Shown: piece after piece, positions 1,177 to 63,173 of the stretch
Position numbering within the stretch: position 1 is the first letter of the stretch
How the letters are laid out: each line of letters opens with the position of its first letter
Source of the DNA: a virus
Direction: 5' to 3' (one strand)
IMG/VR virus record: IMGVR_UViG_3300025096_000009
Coordinates: 15,618 to 79,617 of that record
Length of the DNA: 64,000 nucleotides
Notes under the pieces: generated by a model
The model's database searches: none
Seen by the model: only the letters and a program-made list of their open reading frames with translations
What the model was told of the DNA's origin: nothing
Position numbers and translations under genes: made by a program

Positions 1177-1998
1177 ATGGCAACTTACAAATCTAGCGCT
1201 GGAGCTATTCTTCAGCCAGGTAACCAGATCAATAGACTATCTGGTTATAACGACGAAGGCGTTTTCGGCCTTCCCGGTGTTGAAGCATTCGAACTTGTTG
1301 GTTATGCAAAAGTTACTAACGTAGCTGCTGACAAAGCCTCTTACAAGAGTTTTAGCATCACAGTACCTTCTCCTGATCGCCGTAGTGGCGATAGAGTTCG
1401 GAATGATCGTACTAGCCTTGTTGTACAAGCTAGTGCTGAGCGTCCAGCTTATGTTTATGGCGCTTCAATCGCTATAGGACAGGATGTTCCTTCACTTGCT
1501 GCAGATCGCGCAGGCTTCCCTGCTGCACCTGTAACAGCTGATTTAGGAGCAACAAGTACTGAACTATTACTTCTAGGACCTGATAACAGTGGTGCACCAA
1601 TTGGTGTTCCAGCCACTCAACTATTAGGAAATGCTGCTGCTTCTAGTTCTATCACCGCTGCTTCTAGTGCTTTCGCTCAAGGAGCTTCTGACGTAACAAC
1701 AGGCAACCTACCATTCTGGTCAAGCGTAACTAGCACAATTGCTGCTGCTGACGCTGCTGATTCCATGATGTATAAGGTTGTAGCAGATACCACATTTAAG
1801 GTATACAACGTAAACGCAATCACTAACACTTCTGTGACTGGTGACGGTGTTTATATTAGTGCTGACGACTCAACTGCTGGTCGCGCTGGCTACATTCTGT
1901 GCCGCGTGAACTATCTACGTCCTGCTGCTGGTGTTTCTTGGAATGATATTCAAGGCTATATCGACTTTGCTTCTCAGCTAGGCGGTAACGACGAGTAA
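1177..1998 (+). CDS. Capsid-associated structural protein (decoration/minor capsid)
   Basis: Strong RBS (AGGAGG); sits between the MCP and a terminator; A/S/T/G-rich beta-type composition. Confidence 0.5.
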   Translation: MATYKSSAGAILQPGNQINRLSGYNDEGVFGLPGVEAFELVGYAKVTNVAADKASYKSFSITVPSPDRRSGDRVRNDRTSLVVQASAERPAYVYGASIAIGQDVPSLAADRAGFPAAPVTADLGATSTELLLLGPDNSGAPIGVPATQLLGNAAASSSITAASSAFAQGASDVTTGNLPFWSSVTSTIAAADAADSMMYKVVADTTFKVYNVNAITNTSVTGDGVYISADDSTAGRAGYILCRVNYLRPAAGVSWNDIQGYIDFASQLGGNDE

Positions 1999-2230: not shown

Positions 2231-2671
2231 ATGTTGTACCAGTACAGAGTCACAGGTGGTCTTGTGGAAGTCATATCAAAACATGGCGATGGGATCATGA
2301 TGTGTCTTGATGCCCAAGATGAAGTTCTTTACGTAGACGAGGGAGATTTAACTCCCCATTTAGATGCTACTAATGAGAAGTTGCGTACAGAAGAGAGGCT
2401 TACTGCAGAGTTAGCAGCTGAAGGAGTAAAGCCTGCTAAGTTAACTACGCGAGAGACATTCCCAGTCGATGTACGTGTCAATATTAATAATGCTTCTGCA
2501 CGTCAAATTGCGGATGCATTACCTGGAGTTGGTCTTAAAACAGCTAGGGACATCAAAGATCTTCAAACTTCTCAGTCTGGAGAAAAGTTCCAAAAACTAG
2601 AGCAGTTGAGAAATATTAAAAGAGTAGATTGGGATCAGATTTTCAAAGAGAACTTAGTCCGAGTAGACTGA
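2231..2671 (+). CDS. Helix-hairpin-helix (ComEA/HHH_3-like) DNA-binding protein
   Basis: C-terminal 'VNINNASARQIADALPGVGLKTARDI...FQKLEQLRNIKRV'. Confidence 0.75.
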   Translation: MLYQYRVTGGLVEVISKHGDGIMMCLDAQDEVLYVDEGDLTPHLDATNEKLRTEERLTAELAAEGVKPAKLTTRETFPVDVRVNINNASARQIADALPGVGLKTARDIKDLQTSQSGEKFQKLEQLRNIKRVDWDQIFKENLVRVD

Positions 2672-2697
2672 TACTAGGCTCGTTTTAATGTTGATTA

Positions 2698-4807: not shown

Positions 4808-5152
4808 ATGGCGATAACTTATTTTCAGGACACTATTTTCAGTATTGAGAGTACCTTAACTGCTCCAGCTGCTGGAACTGCTTTGCAGGTAGCCGTTAAT
4901 AACCTTTTTTCTACAAAAGATTACACTCTCATTGTTACTGTCGCTAGTGTAGATACAAATGTAATTGTTGGTTTAGAAGGTAGTGTTGATGGTACAACTT
5001 ATGCTCCAATTATTGCTAATCAAACAATAACTGCTAACGGTACGACTGTTTATAGTGTTTCTGGTAGACCAGTTAAATGGATTCGAACAAATTGGGTGAG
5101 TGAGTCAGGAGGAACTGCTGCCACTGTAACCTTCAATGTAGCGGCTGCATAA
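4808..5152 (+). CDS. Small beta-sandwich virion protein
   Basis: 'VGLEGSVDGTTY...VKWIR' pattern typical of phage structural beta domains. Confidence 0.55.
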   Translation: MAITYFQDTIFSIESTLTAPAAGTALQVAVNNLFSTKDYTLIVTVASVDTNVIVGLEGSVDGTTYAPIIANQTITANGTTVYSVSGRPVKWIRTNWVSESGGTAATVTFNVAAA

Positions 5153-13826: not shown

Positions 13827-16706
13827 ATGTATATTGGGAATGATCTGCAAGTTGCGGAATCAGGCAACAAAATTATTGATGATATAAGCTCTAGTTTTAA
13901 CGGGAGTACAACATCATTCGCGTTGCTGGTAGGTGGGGCAGCTCCTGTTCCTTTTCCAATCAATACTCAGCAGATTTATATATCGGTCAACGGTGTACTT
14001 CAGGAACCAGATCCAACTGGTAGCGCAGGTTTTAAACTATTAGGAAATAATATTGTATTCAGTTCAGCTCCAGCTAATGGACATGCTTTCTTTGGTGTCA
14101 TCTTATCTGGTGCAGATTACGTCACAGTAGGTACGGAGTTCCCTGCAGGCAGTGCTACCGCTCCCTCTATTACCTTTGGAAACGACGACAACACAGGACT
14201 ATATTCTGTAACTGGTGGAACAGTAGGTTTCACTTCAGATGGTGTTCAAACCTTCACCATGGATAGTAATGGTTTTAACTTCCCTGATAGTAAGAAAGTA
14301 AACCTTGGATCTTCGTCGGATTTACAGCTTTATCATGACGGCTCCAATTCATACATAGAGGAAGCAGGAACAGGTAGTTTGTTTCTCCGAGCAACACCTT
14401 CTATTGAATTTAGAAAGGCAGGTGGTACTGAAAAGATGCTCTATGCGGAGCCTGATGCTCAAGTAGAACTCTATTATGACAACACCAAGCGTTTTGAAAC
14501 CACTAACACAGGAACAAATGTTATCGGAATTCACGTAGACGATGGTGCTACACACGACGGAGATGTAACGTTTACTGGTGCAGCTGCTAGTGTTACGTGG
14601 GATAAGTCAGCAGATGATTTGATATTTAATGACAATGCAAAAGCCGCATTCGGTACTTCATCGGATTTAAATATCTATCATGATGGATCTCATAGCTATA
14701 TAGACAGTACTGGTACAGGTTATCTTCTTATACAAGACTCAGGAAACATATATATCAGAACTAATGATTTCCGTGTTCAAACATCAGGTGGCAGTGAAAC
14801 ATGTATTACCTGTAGTGCAAACGGAGCAGTATCACTTAATTTTGACAATAGCACAAAATTTGCCACTACTTCAAGTGGTGCAACGATAACAGGAGACCTA
14901 ATTGTTGGTCAAATAACATCATCAGGTAACATAACGTCTAATGGTACGTACTTAACATTAACGGGTAATAGTTATAACGCATGGTGGGACAAAGCTGCTA
15001 GTGCTCTTGAGTTTCAAGATAATGCTAAGGCAACTTTTGGGACAGCAAATGATCTTCAAATTTATCATGATGGATCTAACTCATATATAAAAGATGCAGG
15101 TACAGGTAATCTTTATATTTTCTCCGAAAACTTACGCATAGAAAATGCAGATGGAAGTGAGTCTTATATAGAAGCTAATGTTAATGGGTCCGTAGAACTT
15201 TATTACGACAACTCAAAGAAATTTGAGACAACTTCAACGGGGGCTAAGGTCTCTAATGTTCTGGAAATAAATAGTAATGGAACTTCAATTGCTGAAAATA
15301 ATTTAAACTTCGAACCTTCTGGAAATGTTTATATTGATCATAGGACTACTTCACAAGATATAATTTTTAGGATGTCTAATTCTTCGGCGTTAGACACAAC
15401 AGCATTAACAATAAAAGCTGACGGGTCTACTACACATCCCGATGCTATTAAGTCTAAATGGGGTGCTGGAGATGATCTTCAAATCTACCATGATGGATCT
15501 AATAGTTATGTTCATAATGATAATGGATCTGGTAACTTCTATATACAAGGCGATGCTATTAGACTCAGATCAAAAACTGGTACTGAAGATTATATAGTAG
15601 CTAATCATAATGGATCCGTAGAACTCTATTACGATAACGCTAAAACTTTTGAAACAGGTACAACAGGAGCAATCCTTAAAGGTGGTAATACAGGCGCAGC
15701 AACTGAATTACAAATTTTTGGTAATGAAGGTCAACGCGGTATATTACTGTTGGCTGCTGATGATGGAGATGATAATGCAGATTATTGGCATTTTGAAGCA
15801 GGAACTGATGGAAACTTAAATATTCAAAATTACAGTGGAGGTTCTTGGGAAAATAGTTTACTTTTAAAAAGTGGTGCAGCCGTAGAACTCTATTATGATG
15901 ACGCTAAGAAGTTAGAGACAACTTCAGCAGGTGCAACTGTAACAGGTAGTCAAAACTCAGCAGTTGAACTTAGGATAGAAAATACTAATAATAGTCAAAA
16001 TGCTGCAATTGCAAAATTAAGCCTACATGGTGGTGATGCTGCAAACCAAGGACCAATAATAGAATTAGATAGAAATGGTGCTTATCATCAAATAGAAGAA
16101 GATGCTTCTGGAAATTTAGATTTTAGTGATAACGGCACAGTTAAATATATAATGGAATCCGATGGTGATTTCCAAATATGTGATGGCGATCTAATCATAG
16201 GAACTTCTGGTCACGGTATTGACTTTAGTGCTACAGGTGGTCCTACTGGTACCGGGGCTTCAAGTGATTCAGAAGTTCTTTCGGACTATGAACATGGGAC
16301 ATGGGTTCCTCTTTTAAGGAATGGAACTAATGAGATTACCTATACAACTGGTAATGCTTCTACAAAGTTTACCTACGTAAAAATTGGTAGATTAGTCCAT
16401 TTAACTTTTTGCTTAAACAATGAAACTACAGCAGGAACTACAGGTGGTAGTAGCAGTTTCCAAATACTAAATGCTCCTTTTGCTCCCGCTGCTGAGAGGA
16501 TTATAAGTACACAAGTGCTTTGGTATGCTACTGGATTGCGTATAAACCAAACACCTATCTTTATGCACCTTCATACCGCTGGTAATTTTGAGGCATATAG
16601 AATGGTTTCTGCTACTGGTGGTTATACTTCAAATAATTGTGAAGTTGAGCAGGTCGGAGCTAGTAGTTATATGTTCTGGCGTATGAGTTATGAAACCAGT
16701 TCATAG
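13827..16706 (+). CDS. Long tail fibre (cyanophage type)
   Basis: DDISSSFNG N-terminus, repeated DLQIYHDGSNSY and VELYYDN units, GTSGHGIDFSA..DYExGTWxP tip. Confidence 0.85.
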   Translation: MYIGNDLQVAESGNKIIDDISSSFNGSTTSFALLVGGAAPVPFPINTQQIYISVNGVLQEPDPTGSAGFKLLGNNIVFSSAPANGHAFFGVILSGADYVTVGTEFPAGSATAPSITFGNDDNTGLYSVTGGTVGFTSDGVQTFTMDSNGFNFPDSKKVNLGSSSDLQLYHDGSNSYIEEAGTGSLFLRATPSIEFRKAGGTEKMLYAEPDAQVELYYDNTKRFETTNTGTNVIGIHVDDGATHDGDVTFTGAAASVTWDKSADDLIFNDNAKAAFGTSSDLNIYHDGSHSYIDSTGTGYLLIQDSGNIYIRTNDFRVQTSGGSETCITCSANGAVSLNFDNSTKFATTSSGATITGDLIVGQITSSGNITSNGTYLTLTGNSYNAWWDKAASALEFQDNAKATFGTANDLQIYHDGSNSYIKDAGTGNLYIFSENLRIENADGSESYIEANVNGSVELYYDNSKKFETTSTGAKVSNVLEINSNGTSIAENNLNFEPSGNVYIDHRTTSQDIIFRMSNSSALDTTALTIKADGSTTHPDAIKSKWGAGDDLQIYHDGSNSYVHNDNGSGNFYIQGDAIRLRSKTGTEDYIVANHNGSVELYYDNAKTFETGTTGAILKGGNTGAATELQIFGNEGQRGILLLAADDGDDNADYWHFEAGTDGNLNIQNYSGGSWENSLLLKSGAAVELYYDDAKKLETTSAGATVTGSQNSAVELRIENTNNSQNAAIAKLSLHGGDAANQGPIIELDRNGAYHQIEEDASGNLDFSDNGTVKYIMESDGDFQICDGDLIIGTSGHGIDFSATGGPTGTGASSDSEVLSDYEHGTWVPLLRNGTNEITYTTGNASTKFTYVKIGRLVHLTFCLNNETTAGTTGGSSSFQILNAPFAPAAERIISTQVLWYATGLRINQTPIFMHLHTAGNFEAYRMVSATGGYTSNNCEVEQVGASSYMFWRMSYETSS

Positions 16707-23823: not shown

Positions 23824-24556
23824 GAAAAAGAAAGTTCAAGATAGGTGGAAAGAACATCCTTTTCTCACCAGAAGGGGTATTAATTTAATAAAAACTCACT
23901 CAATGCCTCGTACTCACATCGGTATGGGGCGTTATGCTGCTTATAAGGACTATGGGGAGGATATTTGGCGTATTGGATATGGAAGTACAAAATTAGGGAA
24001 AAGATGGCTCAGTGCTTCAGATAAGGCTACTAGGGAAGAGATTGATTTACAGCTTGAAGAAGATTTAAAAGAGTTCTCTGATTTAGTAGCTAAATATGTT
24101 TTAGTACCTTTAAACCTTAATAGAAGAGCAGCTGTTCTTAGCTTTGCTCATAGCATTGGGATATCATCGTTAAAGACTTGTCGTTTATTAGAACTAATTA
24201 ACGGTTCTGCCAGTAAGAACACGCTTATTAAGGAGTGGAGTCCTTATATCAACAGAATTTGGATGTCTGGTGGGGATCTGATGAGAGATAGACGTCGGGT
24301 TGAGCTTGATACCTATTTTTCGGCGGATAAGGATATTCCCACTCTTGTTCCTCATCACTGTCGGTTGAAGAAATGCTTATTAAATCTCCCTGAGACTTAT
24401 ACTGGGGCTCCCAATCAGTTGAAAGCAATTGAATATCTTGAGAGAAAGTTACTTCAGTGGGATCCTTCTGAAGAGACTCTTCGTCAGTTTTTCCGGTATT
24501 GGACTCAGAAGCCCACTGGTCTAGGATCTCCGCCGCCTCGGGCTCGAAATGTTTAA
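23789..24556 (+). CDS. GH24 lysozyme-like protein with C-terminal accessory domain (catalytic residues altered)
   Basis: GINLIK...AYKD...IWRIGYGS...VPLNLNRRAAVLSFAHSIG...RRRVE. Confidence 0.75.
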   Translation: MLATAEALSSHKKKKVQDRWKEHPFLTRRGINLIKTHSMPRTHIGMGRYAAYKDYGEDIWRIGYGSTKLGKRWLSASDKATREEIDLQLEEDLKEFSDLVAKYVLVPLNLNRRAAVLSFAHSIGISSLKTCRLLELINGSASKNTLIKEWSPYINRIWMSGGDLMRDRRRVELDTYFSADKDIPTLVPHHCRLKKCLLNLPETYTGAPNQLKAIEYLERKLLQWDPSEETLRQFFRYWTQKPTGLGSPPPRARNV

Positions 24557-24623
24557 GCATGTCTAGTGCATCCATCAGTTGGAGTTCAGGAGTGTAATTT
24601 TCTATGAAGGTTTTGTACTGCAT
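24249..24623 (-). CDS. Hypothetical protein (antisense overlap with the lysozyme-like gene)
   Basis: Overlaps the end of the upstream minus-strand gene; N-terminal half looks helical, 3' part uncertain. Confidence 0.4.
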   Translation of the reverse strand: MQYKTFIENYTPELQLMDALDMLKHFEPEAAEILDQWASESNTGKTDEESLQKDPTEVTFSQDIQLLSTDWEPQYKSQGDLISISSTDSDEEQEWEYPYPPKNRYQAQPDVYLSSDPHQTSKFC

Positions 24624-24922
24624 GAAGGAAGAGCCTTTGGTTGATCTGCTTGATTCTTTAAACCTATTTTAAGCAGTACTAAATAGCCGATTAAGTCCAT
24701 AATGACGTCTTCATCCTCGCCAATCAACCCCACTCCTTTCTGAATTCGGTTTAATTTGTCGTCAATTCTGACTAATAACTGCTCAACTGCACTTGATTTA
24801 CTAAATATACGAGCTGGTTCAAGAGCAGAATTGCCATATTTCTTATTTTTGTACAGTAAAAGTTCTTTTACATCATCACAGACAGCTGCTATTTCAAGTT
24901 GAGTTCCTGTCATTTCTAACAT
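24602..24922 (-). CDS. Nucleotide-modification-associated domain 1 (DUF1599-like) protein
   Basis: LLLYKNKKYGNSAL...LLVRIDDKLNRI...EDVIMDLIGYLVLL. Confidence 0.75.
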   Translation of the reverse strand: MLEMTGTQLEIAAVCDDVKELLLYKNKKYGNSALEPARIFSKSSAVEQLLVRIDDKLNRIQKGVGLIGEDEDVIMDLIGYLVLLKIGLKNQADQPKALPSCSTKPS

Positions 24923-48685: not shown

Positions 48686-48919
48686 TCAATAGGAATACTT
48701 ATAAAGTCTTGCGATATTCACTATATCAAGATCTTCGATTAAGCCAAGCTTTTTGAATTTTTCGTTTATGCTTTTAATAGCAGTTAAGTTTGGTAGGCAC
48801 AAGGCTCTATTCAAGCCATTTGTTTCTTTCAACTCAATAAGTTCTACACTTTTCCCATCTTCAGAGATGCATAGAACTTTGTCACATTCGGGAGTGCATA
48901 AGACGTATCCTGTATGCAT
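48686..48919 (-). CDS. Hypothetical protein
   Basis: Tight operon packing. Confidence 0.55.
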   Translation of the reverse strand: MHTGYVLCTPECDKVLCISEDGKSVELIELKETNGLNRALCLPNLTAIKSINEKFKKLGLIEDLDIVNIARLYKYSY

Positions 48920-48922
48920 GGT

Positions 48923-49207
48923 TCAATCCTTGATCGAATCGGCATCAGGTATAGCCCGCATTAAGAAGATATCTAATGCAATGTGAACAAGAAGCGGTAC
49001 CATTTTAAATGCTTCTGGAGGTAATCCTCCAAAGAGAGCACTTAGTTTGTCACTTAAATCAGTCCTGTGAAGTTCTTCAAATTCGACTGATAGCATGTTT
49101 GCCACATTAAGAAAGAAATCTGCAGGTTCCTCATCTTGATGTTTTAGTTGCTCAACTATTTCCCAGAGCTTAGGATCTGATTGAATCAGTTTTAGTAATT
49201 CTTCCAC
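48923..49207 (-). CDS. Hypothetical acidic helical protein
   Basis: Tight operon packing. Confidence 0.55.
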   Translation of the reverse strand: MEELLKLIQSDPKLWEIVEQLKHQDEEPADFFLNVANMLSVEFEELHRTDLSDKLSALFGGLPPEAFKMVPLLVHIALDIFLMRAIPDADSIKD

Positions 49208-49208
49208 G

Positions 49209-49802
49209 ATGACTTATCGAGTACGCCGCAAGTTTACAAGTTCTACATTTTATATTGATGATCAAATCTGCAAAATCTGGTTTGATCCTGAGAGAGAATA
49301 TCGAAAAGGCTATTGGTTTTGGAAGGTTGGTTTTGCTGTTGGTAAATCTAAACGTCAATTAAATGATTGGTTTAATGAAAGAAATAATAAAAGGACTCGT
49401 CATATTCATAAGAAGATAACTGGCCGAACTGGTATGAAAGCTATTCGTAAAGGCTTTCAAGAAGTATTGAAATTACGCTGGATTGTTCAACCAGGAGACT
49501 GTATAGAGCTGGATTGCACATCCGGAGATCCTGAGAGGCAGTTTCATGCTTGGAGCCGCTGGCATAGATATCATCCCGAATGGGTTATTAATTATGAGAA
49601 GAAAATCTTTTATTGGTATCGTCCTCCTTATTACGATGACACAATTTGGAAGTCATTTAATATAGTTCCTATTACACCAGTTGATTGGGCAGCTAACACT
49701 GCTGGCGATGCTTATTTCAATTGTTTTCGTGCTTATCCTAAAGGAGGGGAATTATCCATGGAGCAAACTCTTGAGTTAGTTGGTCAGGTACTTCCTAGTT
49801 AA
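49209..49802 (+). CDS. Hypothetical protein
   Basis: 197 aa, W/R-rich. Confidence 0.55.
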   Translation: MTYRVRRKFTSSTFYIDDQICKIWFDPEREYRKGYWFWKVGFAVGKSKRQLNDWFNERNNKRTRHIHKKITGRTGMKAIRKGFQEVLKLRWIVQPGDCIELDCTSGDPERQFHAWSRWHRYHPEWVINYEKKIFYWYRPPYYDDTIWKSFNIVPITPVDWAANTAGDAYFNCFRAYPKGGELSMEQTLELVGQVLPS

Positions 49803-49992
49803 AATGACTTTTGATAATTACAGATCTATCGATCTATATCCACATAAGTGTGGAGTTAATCCCATTGCTCATGGATATCTAAGTAAGTACAAACCTTGGT
49901 ATTTTGATGGTAAATCAGTTTGGTGGGGCAGGAGTTATGAATTACGTAGTGAGGCTGAAGAAGCCGCATTAGTTTTGAAAGACAAGGTATAG
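49780..49992 (+). CDS. Hypothetical protein (start probably MTFDN, 49804)
   Basis: ORF following the previous stop. Confidence 0.5.
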   Translation: MVRYFLVKMTFDNYRSIDLYPHKCGVNPIAHGYLSKYKPWYFDGKSVWWGRSYELRSEAEEAALVLKDKV

Positions 49993-50010
49993 CAAGTTTA
50001 ATATATCCGG

Positions 50011-50120
50011 TGGGCCGCAGAAGAACAGTGTCAGGCCCTGGGGGGAGGTGTAGTTTTTACTGTTTCCTGCACCTAGCGAACGAGAGCCTTGCCGAGAGAC
50101 AGCGGTGGGGCTACTCCCCT
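50011..50120 (+). ncRNA. Unassigned structured RNA (hairpin plus three-way junction, possible kissing loop)
   Basis: GC-rich island; stems complete only with G-U on +; preceded by TTGAAA-N18-TAATAT. Confidence 0.65.
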
Positions 50121-50166
50121 TCAATATCTTAAGATTTTCTTTACATTTAATGTATCCGCATAAACT

Positions 50167-50194
50167 GTATCAATGACTACTAAATAGTTATAAT
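50167..50194 (+). promoter_or_regulatory. NtcA box next to a -10 element
   Basis: GTA-TCAATGAC-TAC (50167-50180), 8 nt before TATAAT (50189-50194). Confidence 0.65.
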
Positions 50195-50220
50195 TAACTT
50201 ATCTACACACGGAGAAAACC

Positions 50221-50361
50221 ATGAGGCGTCTTACTTATCGCGGCATCGGATACCAGAAACCTGAAGTTCTAGTTGATAGAAAGACTGTTTCGGATGAAAA
50301 GCATACTTATCGTGGAATTAAATTTCACTATGAAGCTATGAAGAAAAAAGTAGTTGCTTAA
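50221..50361 (+). CDS. DUF4278-like 46-aa peptide (not in ORF track)
   Basis: MRRLTYRGIGYQ...HTYRGIKF: doubled TYRG motif; GGAG RBS. Confidence 0.8.
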   Translation: MRRLTYRGIGYQKPEVLVDRKTVSDEKHTYRGIKFHYEAMKKKVVA

Positions 50362-50415
50362 ATTAAGCGATTGATATAAGCTTTTTCTGGGTTACTGCTC
50401 TGCCCAAAAAACATT

Positions 50416-50446
50416 AAAGCCTCACTGTCATAGGTGGGGCTTTTTT
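50416..50446 (+). terminator. Intrinsic terminator
   Basis: AAAGCCTCACT-GTCATA-GGTGGGGCTTT-TTT. Confidence 0.75.
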
Positions 50447-50484
50447 GATGTTTTGCTTTAAACTAAGTTAGTTATTTTTTTGTT

Positions 50485-50985
50485 ATGGATTACCCCTTTT
50501 TAGAAACATTAGAGGGGAATTGGCAAGATATTAAGCAGGAGCTTGATGATCTTTTATTTGATGAGGTTGATAAGGACGAAGACTACTTTCAACCGTGGCC
50601 AGAGAAGAATCTTTACTTAGGTACTTGGGATGTTTTTGGTTTATATAATTGGGACGAGAAATGCGAAGAGAACTGTGAGAGATGTCCTAAAACTACTGCA
50701 TTAGTTGAAGAGATTCCAGGCTTAAAGACTGCTGGTTTTTCAGCACTAGCACCTCATTCTCATATAAAACCTCATCAAGGATATTTAGATAATCCTGTTT
50801 TACGTGGGCATTTGGGTTTAATTACACCAAAGAACACTAGGACTTGTTGGCTCCGAGTAGATGAGACTACACACTATTGGGAACCTGGTAAAGCTTTTGT
50901 ATTTGACGACCACTTATGGCACGAGGCTCATAATGAAGGTAACACTTGGCGCTTTATCTTATTGTTTGATTTTTTACGCTCATAA
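50485..50985 (+). CDS. Aspartyl/asparaginyl beta-hydroxylase family 2OG oxygenase
   Basis: NWQDIKQE; CPKT; AGFSAL.P.SHIKPH; LRGHLGL; FDD...HEAHN. Confidence 0.9.
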   Translation: MDYPFLETLEGNWQDIKQELDDLLFDEVDKDEDYFQPWPEKNLYLGTWDVFGLYNWDEKCEENCERCPKTTALVEEIPGLKTAGFSALAPHSHIKPHQGYLDNPVLRGHLGLITPKNTRTCWLRVDETTHYWEPGKAFVFDDHLWHEAHNEGNTWRFILLFDFLRS

Positions 50986-51268
50986 TTTTTTCTTTAGTTT
51001 CATTTTGTCCAAGGAGGATTTTTTTTATGAGTTCATCTCTCTTGTGTCTGTTTTCAGGTTGAGAATAAAAGCTGTCTTGATAAATTTCTTTTATTGTCTC
51101 CTGATTATTGTCATGGGTCATCTGTCTCGCGTTTGAATTAGTGGTTCACGGACTAGATAGAACTATTGCGGCTGTTAAAAATACTTTAGGTTCATAAGCT
51201 TATCTAGCCCATGTAGACTTATGCTAAGCCATCTAACAGGCTTAATGATCTCTTAATTAATCATTATC

Positions 51269-52360
51269 ATGGGCACAGCCATTCAGCAGCGGGAGCAAGA
51301 ATCCGCGCTGCTACAGGGATGGCCGCAGTTCACTGATTGGGTTACATCTACAAACAACCGTCTCTACGTGGGATGGTTTGGTGTATTAATGATTCCCTGT
51401 CTTTTGACGGCGGCAACCTGTTTTATTATTGCTTTTATAGCTGCTCCTCCTGTTGATATTGACGGGATTCGTGAACCAGTCGCAGGATCTCTTCTCTATG
51501 GAAACAACATCATCTCAGGAGCAATCGTACCAAGCTCGAACGCCATCGGCATGCATTTTTACCCAATATGGGAAGCTGCGTCGCTTGATGAGTGGCTCTA
51601 CAACGGAGGGCCTTATCAACTCGTCATCTTCCACTTCCTCATTGGTATCGCTGCTTACATGGGACGACAATGGGAACTTAGCTATAGATTAGGAATGCGC
51701 CCTTGGATTTGTGTTGCTTATTCAGCACCAGTCTCAGCCGCATTTGCAATCTTCTTAATTTATCCGTTTGGTCAGGGAAGTTTTTCTGACGGTATGCCTC
51801 TAGGTATATCCGGTACATTTAACTTTATGTTTGTCTTTCAGGCAGAACATAATATTCTTATGCATCCATTCCACATGTTGGGTGTAATAGGCATGTTTGG
51901 TGGGGCTTTGTTTTCCGCTATGCATGGTTCTTTGGTCACTTCTTCCATTATTCGAGAGACTACAGATTCTGAGTCTCAAAATTATGGATATAAGTTTGGC
52001 CAAGAGGAAGAAACTTATAACATCGTTGCAGCGCACGGTTATTTTGGACGTTTAATCTTCCAATATGCCAGCTTCAACAACAGCCGGTCTCTTCACTTCT
52101 TCCTCGCTGCGTTTCCTGTTGTATGCGTTTGGTTCACTTCAATGGGAGTTTCAACTATGGCGTTCAATTTGAATGGTTTTAATTTTAACCAGTCAATTGT
52201 TTCTGCCGATGGAAAAGTGGTACCTACTTGGGCAGATGTTCTTAACCGAGCAAACCTAGGTATGGAAGTTATGCACGAGCGTAATGCTCACAACTTCCCA
52301 CTTGATTTAGCAGCTGCTGAGACATCTGAAGTTGCGCTTATTGCTCCGGCAATAGGTTGA
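51269..52360 (+). CDS. psbA: Photosystem II D1 protein
   Basis: [46 protein letters not shown]. Confidence 0.99.
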
Positions 52361-52390
52361 CCTCTTTAGAGTTACTCGGCTAAATTAAAC

Positions 52391-52458
52391 AAGGTGCATG
52401 GTTTTACCGTGTGCGTGTGTGCAAGATCTAGACCTGGGGGTGGTTCCTCAGGTCTTTT
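52391..52458 (+). ncRNA. Two-hairpin element after psbA (sRNA or psbA 3'UTR) ending in a terminator
   Basis: GTGCATGGT-TTT-ACCGTGTGC hairpin, then AGACCTGGGGG-TGGT-TCCTCAGGTCT-TTT. Confidence 0.5.
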
Positions 52459-52506
52459 CTTATGGTTATTACAAGTAGAATTAAAGAAAATATTTTTAAT
52501 TTTCAA

Positions 52507-53067
52507 ATGTCATATCAATATCAAGACGCTCAAGGTAATCCTTATGTGAGAGGCTGGGGAAATGACTTTACTGATGCGGAGAAGCAGAAATACAAGATTG
52601 GGCAATATAGAGAGGATTTACCCACTACTATGACTGGTGATACTAATCCTAATAGAATACCTTTTCCTGGTCCTGGTTTTGGTACAGGTGTAATGACCCA
52701 AGGTCCTGCTGGTCAGCAGCAAGCACCACGTCCAGAAGGATTTCAGAGAGTTGCTACTGGGATAGCTGATTGGTTAACTGGTAATAACTGGGACTTTGAC
52801 CAACGTGGAACAGGTGCAAAATTTTTAAATGAGATTACTAAAGTAGGTAAGGATCCAAATGGCAATACATTTTCAGAGAATGTTCCTAATATGGCTCCTC
52901 TTCCTGAGCTTGGAATTGATCCACTTGATATTTTAATGCAGGTTCCTGCACCTGGACAAGGAACAGGTGGTGGAAAACGTTATAACCCATATGAAGGACA
53001 AACGATCACACTTCCAGATGGAAGAGTAGTTGAAAGGACTCCTGAGAACTCAGTACCTGGACCTTAA
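52507..53067 (+). CDS. G/P-rich disordered protein
   Basis: Probable ATG 52507 after TAGAAT; contains GIADWLTGNNWDFDQRG. Confidence 0.55.
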   Translation: MSYQYQDAQGNPYVRGWGNDFTDAEKQKYKIGQYREDLPTTMTGDTNPNRIPFPGPGFGTGVMTQGPAGQQQAPRPEGFQRVATGIADWLTGNNWDFDQRGTGAKFLNEITKVGKDPNGNTFSENVPNMAPLPELGIDPLDILMQVPAPGQGTGGGKRYNPYEGQTITLPDGRVVERTPENSVPGP

Positions 53068-53069
53068 TA

Positions 53070-53699
53070 ATGGCAAGTCCGTTAGAGTTTTTAAAAAATA
53101 AAGCGAAGGATGTAGCAGCGGCTGGTCTTAATAAATTACCAGATCGTGGTAATCTTTTTCTTCGTTATATGACTGGTTTAGGGGATAGAAATTTAGATTT
53201 AGATGATTCAACTTTAAGTGGTCTTAGAGATAGTACTGTTGGACTTCCATCAGAACTTCGTGAAGAAAGAGTACATGGTCCAACTGGAACTACTTGGGAT
53301 GAAGCAAAGCCAGGTCCTTGGGCGCATGTTCCCCAATCTGGGGCTATTAATCCTTATGGGAGAGGATATGGTACAGATGTTACTCATACATTAGGTCGTT
53401 TTATGTCTAAGGTAAATCCTGCCAAGACGTTCATTAATTTAAAAGATACTTATGACATGGTGAATGAAGTAGAGGATCCAGATTTAGTTTCAGGAAAATT
53501 TCAACCAATTAAAGCATTAGGATCTTTACATGGTGCTGTGAAGAATATTAATTTTAATTCTGGATTGAAAGGTTTCTATCCAGAGGAAGTAGCTAGAGCT
53601 GGTATGTATTTATCTCCTTGGAAACCTAAACCTTATGAGGTTAATATAGATGTCCCATATTCAGGTGATATTAATAATAGAGAAGTTTATAATCGCTAG
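53070..53699 (+). CDS. Hypothetical protein (possible virion protein)
   Basis: 'TLGRF...LKDTYDM' motif; starts MASPLEFLKNK. Confidence 0.55.
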   Translation: MASPLEFLKNKAKDVAAAGLNKLPDRGNLFLRYMTGLGDRNLDLDDSTLSGLRDSTVGLPSELREERVHGPTGTTWDEAKPGPWAHVPQSGAINPYGRGYGTDVTHTLGRFMSKVNPAKTFINLKDTYDMVNEVEDPDLVSGKFQPIKALGSLHGAVKNINFNSGLKGFYPEEVARAGMYLSPWKPKPYEVNIDVPYSGDINNREVYNR

Positions 53700-55192: not shown

Positions 55193-55512
55193 TCGCGTAT
55201 TTAATTATGGAGGGAATAAACCTTTACAGTACAAACTGCTGTGCAATAAAAAACCACTGCTATGACTAGGTTTAGAAATCCCAGTCTAGTAGTGGTAAGG
55301 GTTTTGTCTTCTTAGAAATCTTTAGATTTGCTGTTATTCTTTTTTGTTTATTAGAGCTTGAAGTGCTTGCTGATCATTCTTTTCTAGAGCATTTGCTATT
55401 TGCTGTGAAACGTGATCATAATCACGGGACTTTGATCTTGTCCGACGCCTATATTCAAGACTTCTTTTGAAAGAACTTGGAGTAGTCATTAGATGGTGTG
55501 CAGTTGACCTAC

Positions 55513-62335: not shown

Positions 62336-62699
62336 CAGTTTTCTCCTGATTGATTAGTGAGTTTCGGAAGTCATCTAGTTTGCCACTTTCAGTGAATGCA
62401 TAGAAAGAGCGTGGTAGTTGTTCTAGGTATTTGAGAGCGTTCGCATGCGTCATATCATATTCGTTATAGAAGCCAGACTTAGGGTCTTTAAGTTCATTAA
62501 TTACTCTTACTTTGTCCTCAGTGCAGCAGAGCATTATTGATTCACCTTCTCTTACGAAGGGATCATTTACATGAAGGTAGAAGTGTGGTTCCCCTTCTCC
62601 AATAGCTTGTGAGCCATTTAGCTTGTCATCATATTGAAGGTATGGAATCCATGTCTTCTCTAGAGAAGGGATAGTTTTCATCCAGTCAGTTCTATTCAT
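62325..62699 (-). CDS. Hypothetical protein
   Basis: Coupled ORF. Confidence 0.55.
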   Translation of the reverse strand: MNRTDWMKTIPSLEKTWIPYLQYDDKLNGSQAIGEGEPHFYLHVNDPFVREGESIMLCCTEDKVRVINELKDPKSGFYNEYDMTHANALKYLEQLPRSFYAFTESGKLDDFRNSLINQEKTDDK

Positions 62700-63148
62700 T
62701 AAGCTGCCTCCTTTTTCTGCTTCTTGTCATATTCTTTACCTAGTCTTTCTTCATCACTAGCTCTTCTCATTATTGTTAGTGAATCTTCAAAACTATGGCT
62801 GTCTATAGCAGCTTGAAGATTTGCTATCTCGATAGACAAAGAAATCGAAGTTTTTCTTAGAGCTTCTATTCCATCATCAAAGATTTCAGAACATACTTGC
62901 TCTGTCTCAAACCAGCCAGTGAGTCCTTCTAGTTCCTCTGAATAATCTCCTCCTTTACATTCCCACTTCATTTTCTGATGCGTGAGAAAATGCTCAGAAA
63001 CGTAAAGAGAATTAGTTCTCGATAACTTTTTATCAATTTCTGAATTTAATCTGCTGATGCGATCCATATTTGCGTGGTGTACTTTCACAGCTTTGTCATG
63101 CTGCTCTTGTACCCACTTTTCTTTTGCAGTTGGATTGTTGTTAGGCAT
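62699..63148 (-). CDS. Hypothetical coiled-coil protein
   Basis: Coupled ORF. Confidence 0.55.
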   Translation of the reverse strand: MPNNNPTAKEKWVQEQHDKAVKVHHANMDRISRLNSEIDKKLSRTNSLYVSEHFLTHQKMKWECKGGDYSEELEGLTGWFETEQVCSEIFDDGIEALRKTSISLSIEIANLQAAIDSHSFEDSLTIMRRASDEERLGKEYDKKQKKEAA

Positions 63149-63173
63149 TGGTCTGTGTGGTAAAGGTGTGTGT

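Follow-up and report, generated by a model that had tools for sequence, protein, structure and literature searches.

A predicted small RNA gene behind psbA in a family of cyanophages, with the DUF4278 leader as its candidate target

What is the short structured sequence that follows the photosynthesis gene psbA in the IMG/VR virus record IMGVR_UViG_3300025096_000009, and what could it do? The genome record comprises 79,617 bp with a G+C content of 39.8%, and a stretch of 64 kb (positions 15,618 to 79,617 of the record), here called the window, was analysed; coordinates are those of the window unless another locus is named. The first-pass annotation saw that RNA from this site could pair with the ribosome binding site and start codon of a gene for a DUF4278 peptide, and proposed that a trans-acting phage small RNA (sRNA), or the 3' untranslated region (UTR) of psbA, silences the peptide and so links photosynthesis-gene expression to nitrogen control. 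Judging from the sequence and its relatives, we are highly confident that positions 52393 to about 52459 of the + strand are a real, phage-specific RNA gene. The element is best described as a new, conserved cyanophage small RNA gene, for which silencing of the DUF4278 gene is the best candidate role and not a demonstrated one. The explanation we prefer, to which we give somewhat better than even chances, is that of a phage RNA of about 66 nt, transcribed on its own and probably acting in trans by pairing at translation starts.

Promoter, structure and conservation of the RNA

The psbA gene (D1 protein; 51269-52360, +) ends with a TGA stop at 52358-52360. Its last Gly codon and this stop are overlapped by a -35 box, TTGACC (52357-52362, +), which is followed after 18 nt by a -10 box, TAAATT (52381-52386, +). 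This sigma-70-type promoter, with its -35 box provided by the end of psbA, would drive an RNA whose 5' end is placed at 52393 from the -10 box and whose 3' end is placed at about 52459 from the T-run. The box at 52381 had been noted earlier as a weak one; it is there on the + strand as read, but it turns out to be the conserved -10 element of a promoter found in 10 of the 12 lineages compared.

Hairpin 1 (GUGCAUGGU / ACCGUGUGC; 52394-52414, +) joins 52394-52402 with 52406-52414 by nine pairs, three of them G-U. It is followed by a single-stranded linker, GUGUGUGCAAGAUCU (52415-52429, +), with a GU-rich core CGUGUGUG(C/U) if the last base of hairpin 1 is counted, and then by hairpin 2 (52430-52455, +), which has 11 pairs, six of them G-C. 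Hairpin 2 is followed directly by TTTCTT (T-run 52456-52459), and such a G+C-rich stem-loop with a U-run is the form of an intrinsic terminator, in this case common to the sRNA and psbA. The earlier description of a + strand hairpin followed by a terminator is correct. From 5' to 3' the transcript would have a hairpin rich in G-U pairs, an unpaired GU-rich stretch (CGUGUGUGCAA) and, at its end, a strong hairpin with a U-run, and a short non-coding transcript delimited by its own promoter and terminator has, at the sequence level only, the outline of a pairing sRNA.

Three IMG/VR contigs were found by way of the hydroxylase-like protein encoded upstream of psbA, an alignment of a 197-aa protein from the same region (A1) led to 71 metagenome loci and one further IMG/VR contig, and a search with the terminator pattern added an 87-kb contig. 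Judged in part by their sample codes, the 71 loci are from marine and other aquatic samples. The element occurs in 12 lineages (the window with L008; L077; L002/L003/L028/L029; L013; L017; L019; L023; L031-L033; L081; L012, which is partial; L040; L057), among which L040 and L057 are distant relatives with higher GC and no psbA. The promoter, with the form TTGACN, 18 nt, TANNTT, 6 nt and G, is present also in these two. The T-A at positions 1-2 and the T-T at positions 5-6 of the -10 box are kept (TAGATT, TACGTT or TAAGTT in relatives), as are the 6 nt to the first G of the RNA and the 18 nt of the spacer, the sequence of which has diverged.

The two helices are 96.6% paired in an alignment of 10 sequences (A3), with 6 pairs changed on both sides, and none of 500 shuffles reaches the observed values; when the helices are slid as a control the paired fraction falls to 21-74%. 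RNAalifold independently predicts the same two helices. The seven outer pairs of hairpin 1 are kept in the 10 sequences, one of them changing from G-U to A-U or U-A and others from U-G to U-A, and L023 retains 9 bp with a different sequence. Hairpin 2 has a conserved apex, GGGGGUGGU(U/G)CC, and five of its pairs are changed on both sides in L040 and L057. Covariation in this helix comes mostly from these two distant members, the marine group being mainly conserved in sequence with one double change. A T-run stands directly after hairpin 2 in the marine relatives, with at least 5 T in most and 4 in L008 and L077 as in the window, and no clear U-run follows it in L040 and L057. Since the many G-U pairs of the helices form only on the + strand, the strand is fixed. 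A 26-codon open reading frame (ORF) within the RNA (52398-52478) is not conserved and is cut to 3 codons in L023; because of this break, and because the loop indels are not multiples of 3, the element is judged non-coding. A covariance model of the RNA, R1, finds a single copy in the window (90 bits) and recovers L023 at 51.6 bits although L023 had been left out of the model. The conserved, gene-like anatomy, the fold and the strand are thereby shown, and accumulation of the RNA, like its action in trans and the identity of its target, is inferred.

One could suppose that the sequence does nothing but terminate transcription, that its conservation stems from recent exchange of psbA cassettes, and that its complementarity to the DUF4278 leader arose by chance. 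The psbA gene is known to move between cyanophages and hosts, and the gapped 16-bp match does lie within the genome-wide range (see below). However, the RNA is 80-92% identical to its relatives while the third positions of their psbA genes show only 50-65% identity; the promoter spacer and the silent sites of psbA have diverged strongly and the RNA has not; the element is also present, with compensatory stem changes, in relatives without psbA. Nor was it found downstream of host psbA, R1 giving nothing within 600 nt of the gene in 36 picocyanobacterial loci. On these comparisons we hold such a reading to be close to excluded.

The order of events at the site can be read from the relatives. The psbA-bearing phages obtain their TTGAC from the last GGT TGA C of psbA, and in L040 and L057 the same promoter is placed after a divergent minus-strand gene. 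In L013 (2230-2380) psbA has been cut to a remnant of about 19 codons joined to the -10 box, with the -10 box and the RNA kept, and L012 (7560-7640) has a TAA stop, retains the terminator and is without the -10 box, hairpin 1 and the GU core. Because L040 and L057 share the promoter and L013 keeps the RNA, the RNA gene is older than psbA at this site and independent of it. Given that the psbA-less relatives carry the same promoter, it looks like psbA was inserted before an existing sRNA gene, and not like the sRNA evolved from a 3' UTR. The proposed coupling to photosynthesis-gene expression is therefore unsupported: the RNA predates psbA here and has its own promoter, which is the same in relatives lacking psbA. 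Transcripts of psbA should nevertheless, absent an earlier terminator, read through the sRNA to the common terminator, and since hairpin 2 would also terminate psbA, the same sequence would also form the psbA mRNA's 3' end.

This double position raises the alternative that the element acts in cis only, as terminator or 3' stabiliser of psbA and/or as leader or attenuator of the variable downstream genes. For psbA, which needs a terminator, hairpin 2 provides an intrinsic one of textbook form, and the element lies at a border between conserved and variable DNA. In L040 and L057, moreover, a + strand gene begins within about 150 nt and hairpin 2 lacks a clear U-run, so that the RNA would there be the 5' UTR of that gene. 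Against an action in cis only speak the promoter, conserved with or without psbA upstream, and the survival of the element after deletion of psbA in L013. The sequence conservation of hairpin 1 and the linker also far exceeds what a terminator needs, the downstream gene varies by lineage (p186-type, p161-type, 224-aa type), which fits poorly with a gene-specific leader, and no alternative anti-terminator pairing was evident in the inspected folds. We regard an element restricted to cis as unlikely, though it may be so in L040 and L057.

There are other hypotheses as well. The GU core is present in 12 of 12 lineages in our alignments, and this core and the apex GGGGGUGGUGCC of hairpin 2 are invariant while the stems covary, which is typical of recognition motifs. 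The RNA could thus work through a protein or by some other non-pairing route, for example by sequestering an RNA-binding protein or a nuclease of the host, or as a replication primer near the replication module. That no single conserved pairing partner was found in the complete genomes or in the cognate-swap test speaks for such a route. On the other hand there is no positive sign of a protein partner, and the layout of 5' hairpin, unpaired stretch and terminator is the usual one of pairing sRNAs. The GC-skew profile has nothing specific at the site, and a replication origin was rejected as an explanation. A non-pairing role is in our opinion very unlikely.

The RNA belongs to no described family. 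Rfam gave no match at gathering score in the window, and with E up to 10 allowed the region 49900-52700 had no relevant one; the covariance models for PhotoRC-I/II, glnA RNA, the Downstream-peptide motif and the Yfr families were unmatched in the window, and the copies in L040 and L057 had no Rfam match. A search of 185k species genomes for the terminator pattern gave no exact match. In cultured phages the RNA had no blastn match, and R1 had none in S-SBP1 or S-EIV1. Over four whole picocyanobacterial genomes R1 gave nothing, and over 151 Cyanobiaceae genomes one weak match; on this sampling of host-type genomes we see no convincing copy. In the Cyanobiaceae genome G012 (locus L174) there are two weak R1 matches 1.1 kb apart, 1501-1552(-) and 2610-2684(-), the first with an identical apex GGGGGUGGUGCC and U-run (29 bits) and the second with UUGUGUGCAGAAAA followed by a hairpin. 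These may represent a host relative of the RNA, or chance.

Pairing with the DUF4278 leader

If the RNA is a regulator, what does it regulate? Our preferred explanation has it act in trans, most likely through base pairs formed with the regions where translation is initiated. CA-rich sequence of the leader would be bound by the GU-rich stretch of the RNA and, after opening of hairpin 1, (A)CCAUG at the start codon would in some lineages be bound as well, by the 5' arm CAUGG(U). The best predicted partner in this phage is the short leader (about 20 nt) of the DUF4278 gene (50221-50361, +), which encodes a peptide of 46 aa that is IF17-N-terminal-like and has a double TYRG motif (Pfam PF14105, 27.1 bits, E = 5.4e-6). 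Pairing there would cover the Shine-Dalgarno (SD) sequence and the AUG, and initiation would be blocked.

The proposed target site (50206-50223, +) contains leader, GGAG and the AUG at 50221. Positions 52397-52413 read CATGGTTTTACCGTGTG, both arms lying within hairpin 1, and positions 50206-50223 read CACACGGAGAAAACCATG, with the reverse complement CATGGTTTT-CT-CCGTGTG. The pairing of 9 + 7 bp claimed in the first-pass annotation is exactly there; it spans GGAG and ATG, contains a 1x2 internal loop and has a duplex energy of -21.8 kcal/mol. When the leader is shuffled by dinucleotides, only one shuffle in 1000 attains -24.2 kcal/mol (p = 0.001, for this pair alone). Of the 130 putative start regions just one is ahead of the DUF4278 leader in duplex energy, and none in net binding energy (-12.4, the next being -11.2 and -11.1).

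Comparisons with relatives lend further support to this target. In 7 of 9 lineages DUF4278 scores better than all the others among 8-12 conserved neighbour genes, and its mean net energy is -9.6 against -5.9 for the next gene. Three complete genomes were compared, this phage and the relatives G001 and G002; of 64 gene families common to them DUF4278 ranks first (Fisher p = 0.0076 and 0.0054), and it is the sole conserved family that scores well in all three. The RNA of L077 has an insertion with AGGAUC opposite GAUCCU at the colinear place of the leader, both being specific to that lineage, and in L023 the RNA CAUGAUUAGUU stands opposite the leader GGAUUAAUCAUG with 11 bp, two positions being changed on both sides relative to the window. 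CC at -2/-1 is found in 15 of 27 distinct DUF4278 leaders, to be compared with 10 of 130 start regions of this genome, and CACAC(A/G)(C)G stands beside the SD in most of the marine lineages, with 14 of the 27 leaders having it, all of them marine and none estuarine.

A considerable number of results weigh against this pairing. When the leader is compared with every 30-nt window on both strands of the 79.6-kb genome, the site comes second in a continuous tail (-27.7, -25.2, -24.8, -24.2, -24.2); because of this continuity the match, real and top-ranked as it is, is no outlier in a post-hoc search; the first-pass annotation had itself cautioned that a gapped 16-bp match may arise by chance. A 9-bp match, AACCAUGCA/UGCAUGGUU, at the start of a 77-aa gene at 48919(-) beats the DUF4278 leader by duplex energy. 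In the two other complete genomes the DUF4278 leader is only number 19-20 of 149 (G001) and 13-16 of 160 (G002) start regions; without the discovery genome the combined p is about 0.07, as derived from the shared-family values, and the top rank among the 64 families fails correction (0.0054 x 64, about 0.35). The GU linker alone ranks the leader 8th of 130, 10th of 149 and 40th of 160. Cognate pairs of RNA and leader are no better than swapped pairs (p = 0.24 and 0.17).

The 9 + 7 duplex needs hairpin 1 to be opened, and in 6 of 9 lineages the optimal interaction leaves this hairpin closed and uses the linker only, which forms 6-8 bp with CACACAC(G) immediately 5' of the SD. Over the AUG the 9-bp arm is not kept as such; what recurs is CAUGG/CCAUG, 5 bp of which 3 are the start codon. 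Part of the pairing signal is generic, as any RNA with CAU pairs with every AUG, and one with CAUGG with every CCAUG start. In L040 and L057 the RNA is present, as is a DUF4278-like gene with GTA-N8-TAC in its promoter, but their leader has a GU-rich motif instead of CACAC and the net predicted binding is only about -2.4 kcal/mol. Conversely, L012 is without the 5' half of the RNA and yet has kept a CACACGG leader. CA-rich, SD-poor leaders are moreover common in these phages and are the top matches in the relatives. Finally, contigs of the metatranscriptome X1 (5% of sampled words shared) have nothing on 52344-52700, their coverage being generic psbA of other organisms and one 169-nt contig with 2 mismatches on 49944-50111; since X1 consists of contigs, it says nothing on absence of the RNA.

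It is thus possible that the sRNA is genuine and trans-acting and that the match to the DUF4278 leader is fortuitous, with other phage leaders, many of them SD-less, CA-rich and belonging to minus-strand genes, or host mRNAs as the partners. This possibility is nested in our preferred explanation and differs from it on the target only; we think of it as plausible but well below even odds. The top partners in the relatives are indeed other CA-rich leaders ending in ACCAUG (-15.4 and -14.2 in G002, -11.4 and -11.3 in G001), and start regions at -20 kcal/mol or below number 7-12 for the native RNA and 2-4 for its shuffles. Leaders have an excess of hexamers complementary to the GU core in sense orientation, with 17 sites versus 3 in the opposite orientation in the three genomes (P = 0.0016, 0.0005, 0.01), which fits either a broader regulon or a general style of leader. 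Conservation of the RNA in L040 and L057, where the DUF4278 leader is unmatched, and the lack of cognate advantage point the same way. Against a fortuitous match stand the unique position of DUF4278 as a conserved family scoring well in all three complete genomes, the matched changes in L077 and L023 that are specific to its leader, and the fact that the genes of other top leaders are without homologues in relatives; for the 149-aa gene with a CA-rich leader (62699-63148(-)), for example, none was found in four related records.

Taken together, the earlier proposal of a trans-acting sRNA that silences DUF4278 survives in its first half. The RNA does look like a trans-acting sRNA, with promoter, helices and linker conserved in 12 lineages, and that it acts by pairing in trans is a view that we lean towards slightly; silencing, with moderate ranks and no advantage of cognate pairs, is not established, and we hold it doubtful, though a real possibility, that the DUF4278 mRNA is its physiological target. 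A more far-reaching idea is that of a family-wide phage riboregulator with a small regulon, in which the GU core and the CAUGG arm would read SD-poor, CA-rich leaders ending in CCAUG, including that of the NtcA-controlled IF17-like gene in the marine psbA-bearing lineage, and with the RNA produced in two ways, from its own promoter and as a psbA mRNA tail. We consider this quite unlikely in its entirety.

Some other candidates and leaders should be mentioned. The start regions of psbA and of the hydroxylase gene were tried as partners and rejected for poor pairing. Many minus-strand genes have SD-less, CA-rich leaders (CACACAC, CCACC, ACCATG), e.g. at 63149-63173(-) and 55490-55512(-) and in G001 and G002. 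The start of the 77-aa gene (48905-48925(-), AACCAUGCA) is a perfect 9-bp complement of the 5' arm UGCAUGGUU of the sRNA; its CCAUGCA is kept in most lineages, it overlaps the end of the upstream gene, and there is no compensation in L023 or L013.

The locus and the phage

The psbA region is a run of + strand genes, encoding a lineage-specific 197-aa protein (49209-49802, +), the DUF4278 peptide, an Asp/Arg hydroxylase-like protein (50485-50985, +) and D1. The nearest cellular D1 proteins are those of Prochlorococcus, with 89% amino acid identity, and a host of the Prochlorococcus type is therefore likely. The window also encodes a family A DNA polymerase with only about 45% identity to any polymerase of the phage collection, a collection that yielded matches to psbA only. 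With the 201-aa protein encoded downstream and the DUF4278 peptide as queries no close relatives were found in IMG/VR or in the phage collection, and a search of a large protein collection with the DUF4278 peptide gave 4 clusters only. Homologues of the 197-aa protein with 47-49% identity occur in T7-like cyanopodoviruses (S-SBP1 24289-24708; S-RIP2), directly after tail tubular protein B, and there is a 35% match in S-EIV1 (4835-5152), which shares the genome size of about 79 kb and the family A polymerase. The family of cyanophages of about 80 kb to which the phage belongs is widespread but little-studied.

The promoter of the DUF4278 gene (50167-50194, +), which is context of the proposed target and lies outside the RNA, consists of GTA-N8-TAC (50167-50180), 8 nt and TATAAT (50189-50194). 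DUF4278 homologues stand behind the same type of promoter in about 27 lineages, and the layout of GTA-N8-TAC and -10 box is kept in all listed relatives (about 27 loci, marine and estuarine). The GTA-N8-TAC sits 6-9 nt upstream of the -10 box throughout the family and overlaps the core promoter, as in the NtcA-repressed gif genes. In the estuarine and freshwater loci L039, L040, L044, L045 and L057 the DUF4278 leader has GUAUGUGG(U/C) in place of CACACACGG, and this can fold onto (A/G)CCAUG; the start codon might there lie in a cis hairpin, a mirror of the sRNA's hairpin 1. Upstream of the promoter there is a structured-looking region of about 110 nt (50005-50125; L040:5490-5600; L057:5485-5600; L003:3598-3715), kept even in distant relatives without psbA and with apparent compensatory changes (AGGTG..CACCT versus AGCGC..GCGCT). 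It matched no Rfam family, and as a partner of the sRNA it was rejected, the pairing with 50011-50120 being no better than with shuffles (p = 0.42).

On its 3' side the sRNA marks a boundary between conserved and variable DNA. The genes beyond it (52462-53699, and the same regions of L003, L017, L031 and L040) form a mosaic of differing low-complexity or disordered proteins, and the likely true start of the first downstream gene is 52507 (MSYQYQ...) and not 52462. Just past the terminator the motif TACAAGTAGAATTAAAG is kept (52470-52486; the same place in L002, L012, L017, L023 and L031; about 9360-9385 in L057). It contains a -10-like TAGAAT or TAAAAT and may act as promoter for the variable genes that follow, or as an anchor at which cassettes are exchanged.

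Comparison with known systems

In our literature search we found no report of a trans-acting pairing sRNA for a cyanophage; the non-coding RNAs reported there were cis-regulatory motifs and one antisense RNA, CfrI. To our knowledge, a conserved and separately promoted small RNA has not been reported in cyanophages before. If a regulon does exist, it would be the first trans-acting sRNA regulon in a cyanophage, and it would tie a nitrogen-status gene to a phage RNA. Even with another target, the placement of psbA, by which an older sRNA gene takes its -35 box from the psbA stop codon, is useful in itself. The small RNA offers a concrete RNA to test in this phage family, and R1 can be used to annotate it in viromes.

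DapZ and MicL of enterobacteria are sRNAs that arise at the 3' ends of mRNAs, from a promoter of their own within the preceding coding region or at its end, and that use the terminator of this upstream gene. ApcZ in Synechocystis is likewise a 3'-end sRNA with its own promoter (PMC8136909). The phage RNA resembles this type in that its -35 box overlaps the stop of psbA and the terminator is common, which makes the sequence both a 3' UTR and a separate predicted transcript; it differs in that its promoter is older than the upstream gene at this site.

The closest parallel by position is CfrI, an antisense RNA of about 225 nt at the 3' end of psbA in the cyanomyovirus S-PM2, which links psbA to a homing-endonuclease gene (Millard et al. 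2010, as summarised in PMC12197685). Both are non-coding RNAs adjoining the 3' end of a cyanophage psbA; our RNA differs by its length of about 66 nt, its sense strand (G-U pairs in both helices), the lack of an endonuclease ORF nearby and the unrelated phage family. Trans-acting sRNAs encoded by phages or prophages are known in DicF, IpeX and 24B_1 (review PMC12197685). Like these, the RNA is short, has a terminator hairpin and would pair with mRNAs, but they come from enterobacterial phages and have mostly host genes as targets.

In host genomes DUF4278 genes are preceded by glutamine riboswitches, the glnA RNA and the Downstream-peptide motif (PMC6212724). Control at the RNA level of the DUF4278 translation start, as proposed here, would be a common feature; the riboswitches are, however, cis aptamers in long 5' UTRs, while the phage leader is about 20 nt, matches neither Rfam model and would be controlled from a separate RNA.

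The comparison that was made at the outset is with NsiR4 of beta-cyanobacteria, an sRNA repressing gifA, the gene for IF7 (Klaehn et al. 2015; summary in PMC6316151). Each of the two small RNAs pairs, or is proposed to pair, with the 5' UTR of the mRNA for a small nitrogen-related peptide, the promoter of which has an NtcA box in a repressing position. The likeness is a loose one all the same. The phage peptide resembles the N-terminal part of IF17 (DUF4278) and not IF7, the RNA is phage-encoded and the interaction is a predicted one. The NsiR4 promoter is NtcA-activated, with the box at -41.5, and NsiR4 is absent from marine picocyanobacteria and alpha-cyanobacteria (PMC6316151); the phage RNA has a plain TTGACC and no GTA-N8-TAC upstream of 52393. 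No Rfam family that would indicate NsiR4 homology was matched at E up to 10, presence of an NsiR4 model in Rfam being unconfirmed. Inactivation of glutamine synthetase in Synechocystis does not require DUF4278, the N-terminal part of IF17 (gifB), and the marine IF17-like peptides have no proven function (PMC6212724, PMC6316151). Of the complete phage-borne circuit that had been envisaged, the GTA-N8-TAC on the DUF4278 promoter is conserved, but the arm from sRNA to leader has mixed comparative support, and the specific circuit is a reasonable but unproven hypothesis. Should the sRNA repress the IF17-like peptide, the gene would be under two layers of control, an NtcA box on its promoter and an sRNA on its leader, and this arrangement would resemble the host NtcA-NsiR4-gifA circuit, with unrelated parts.

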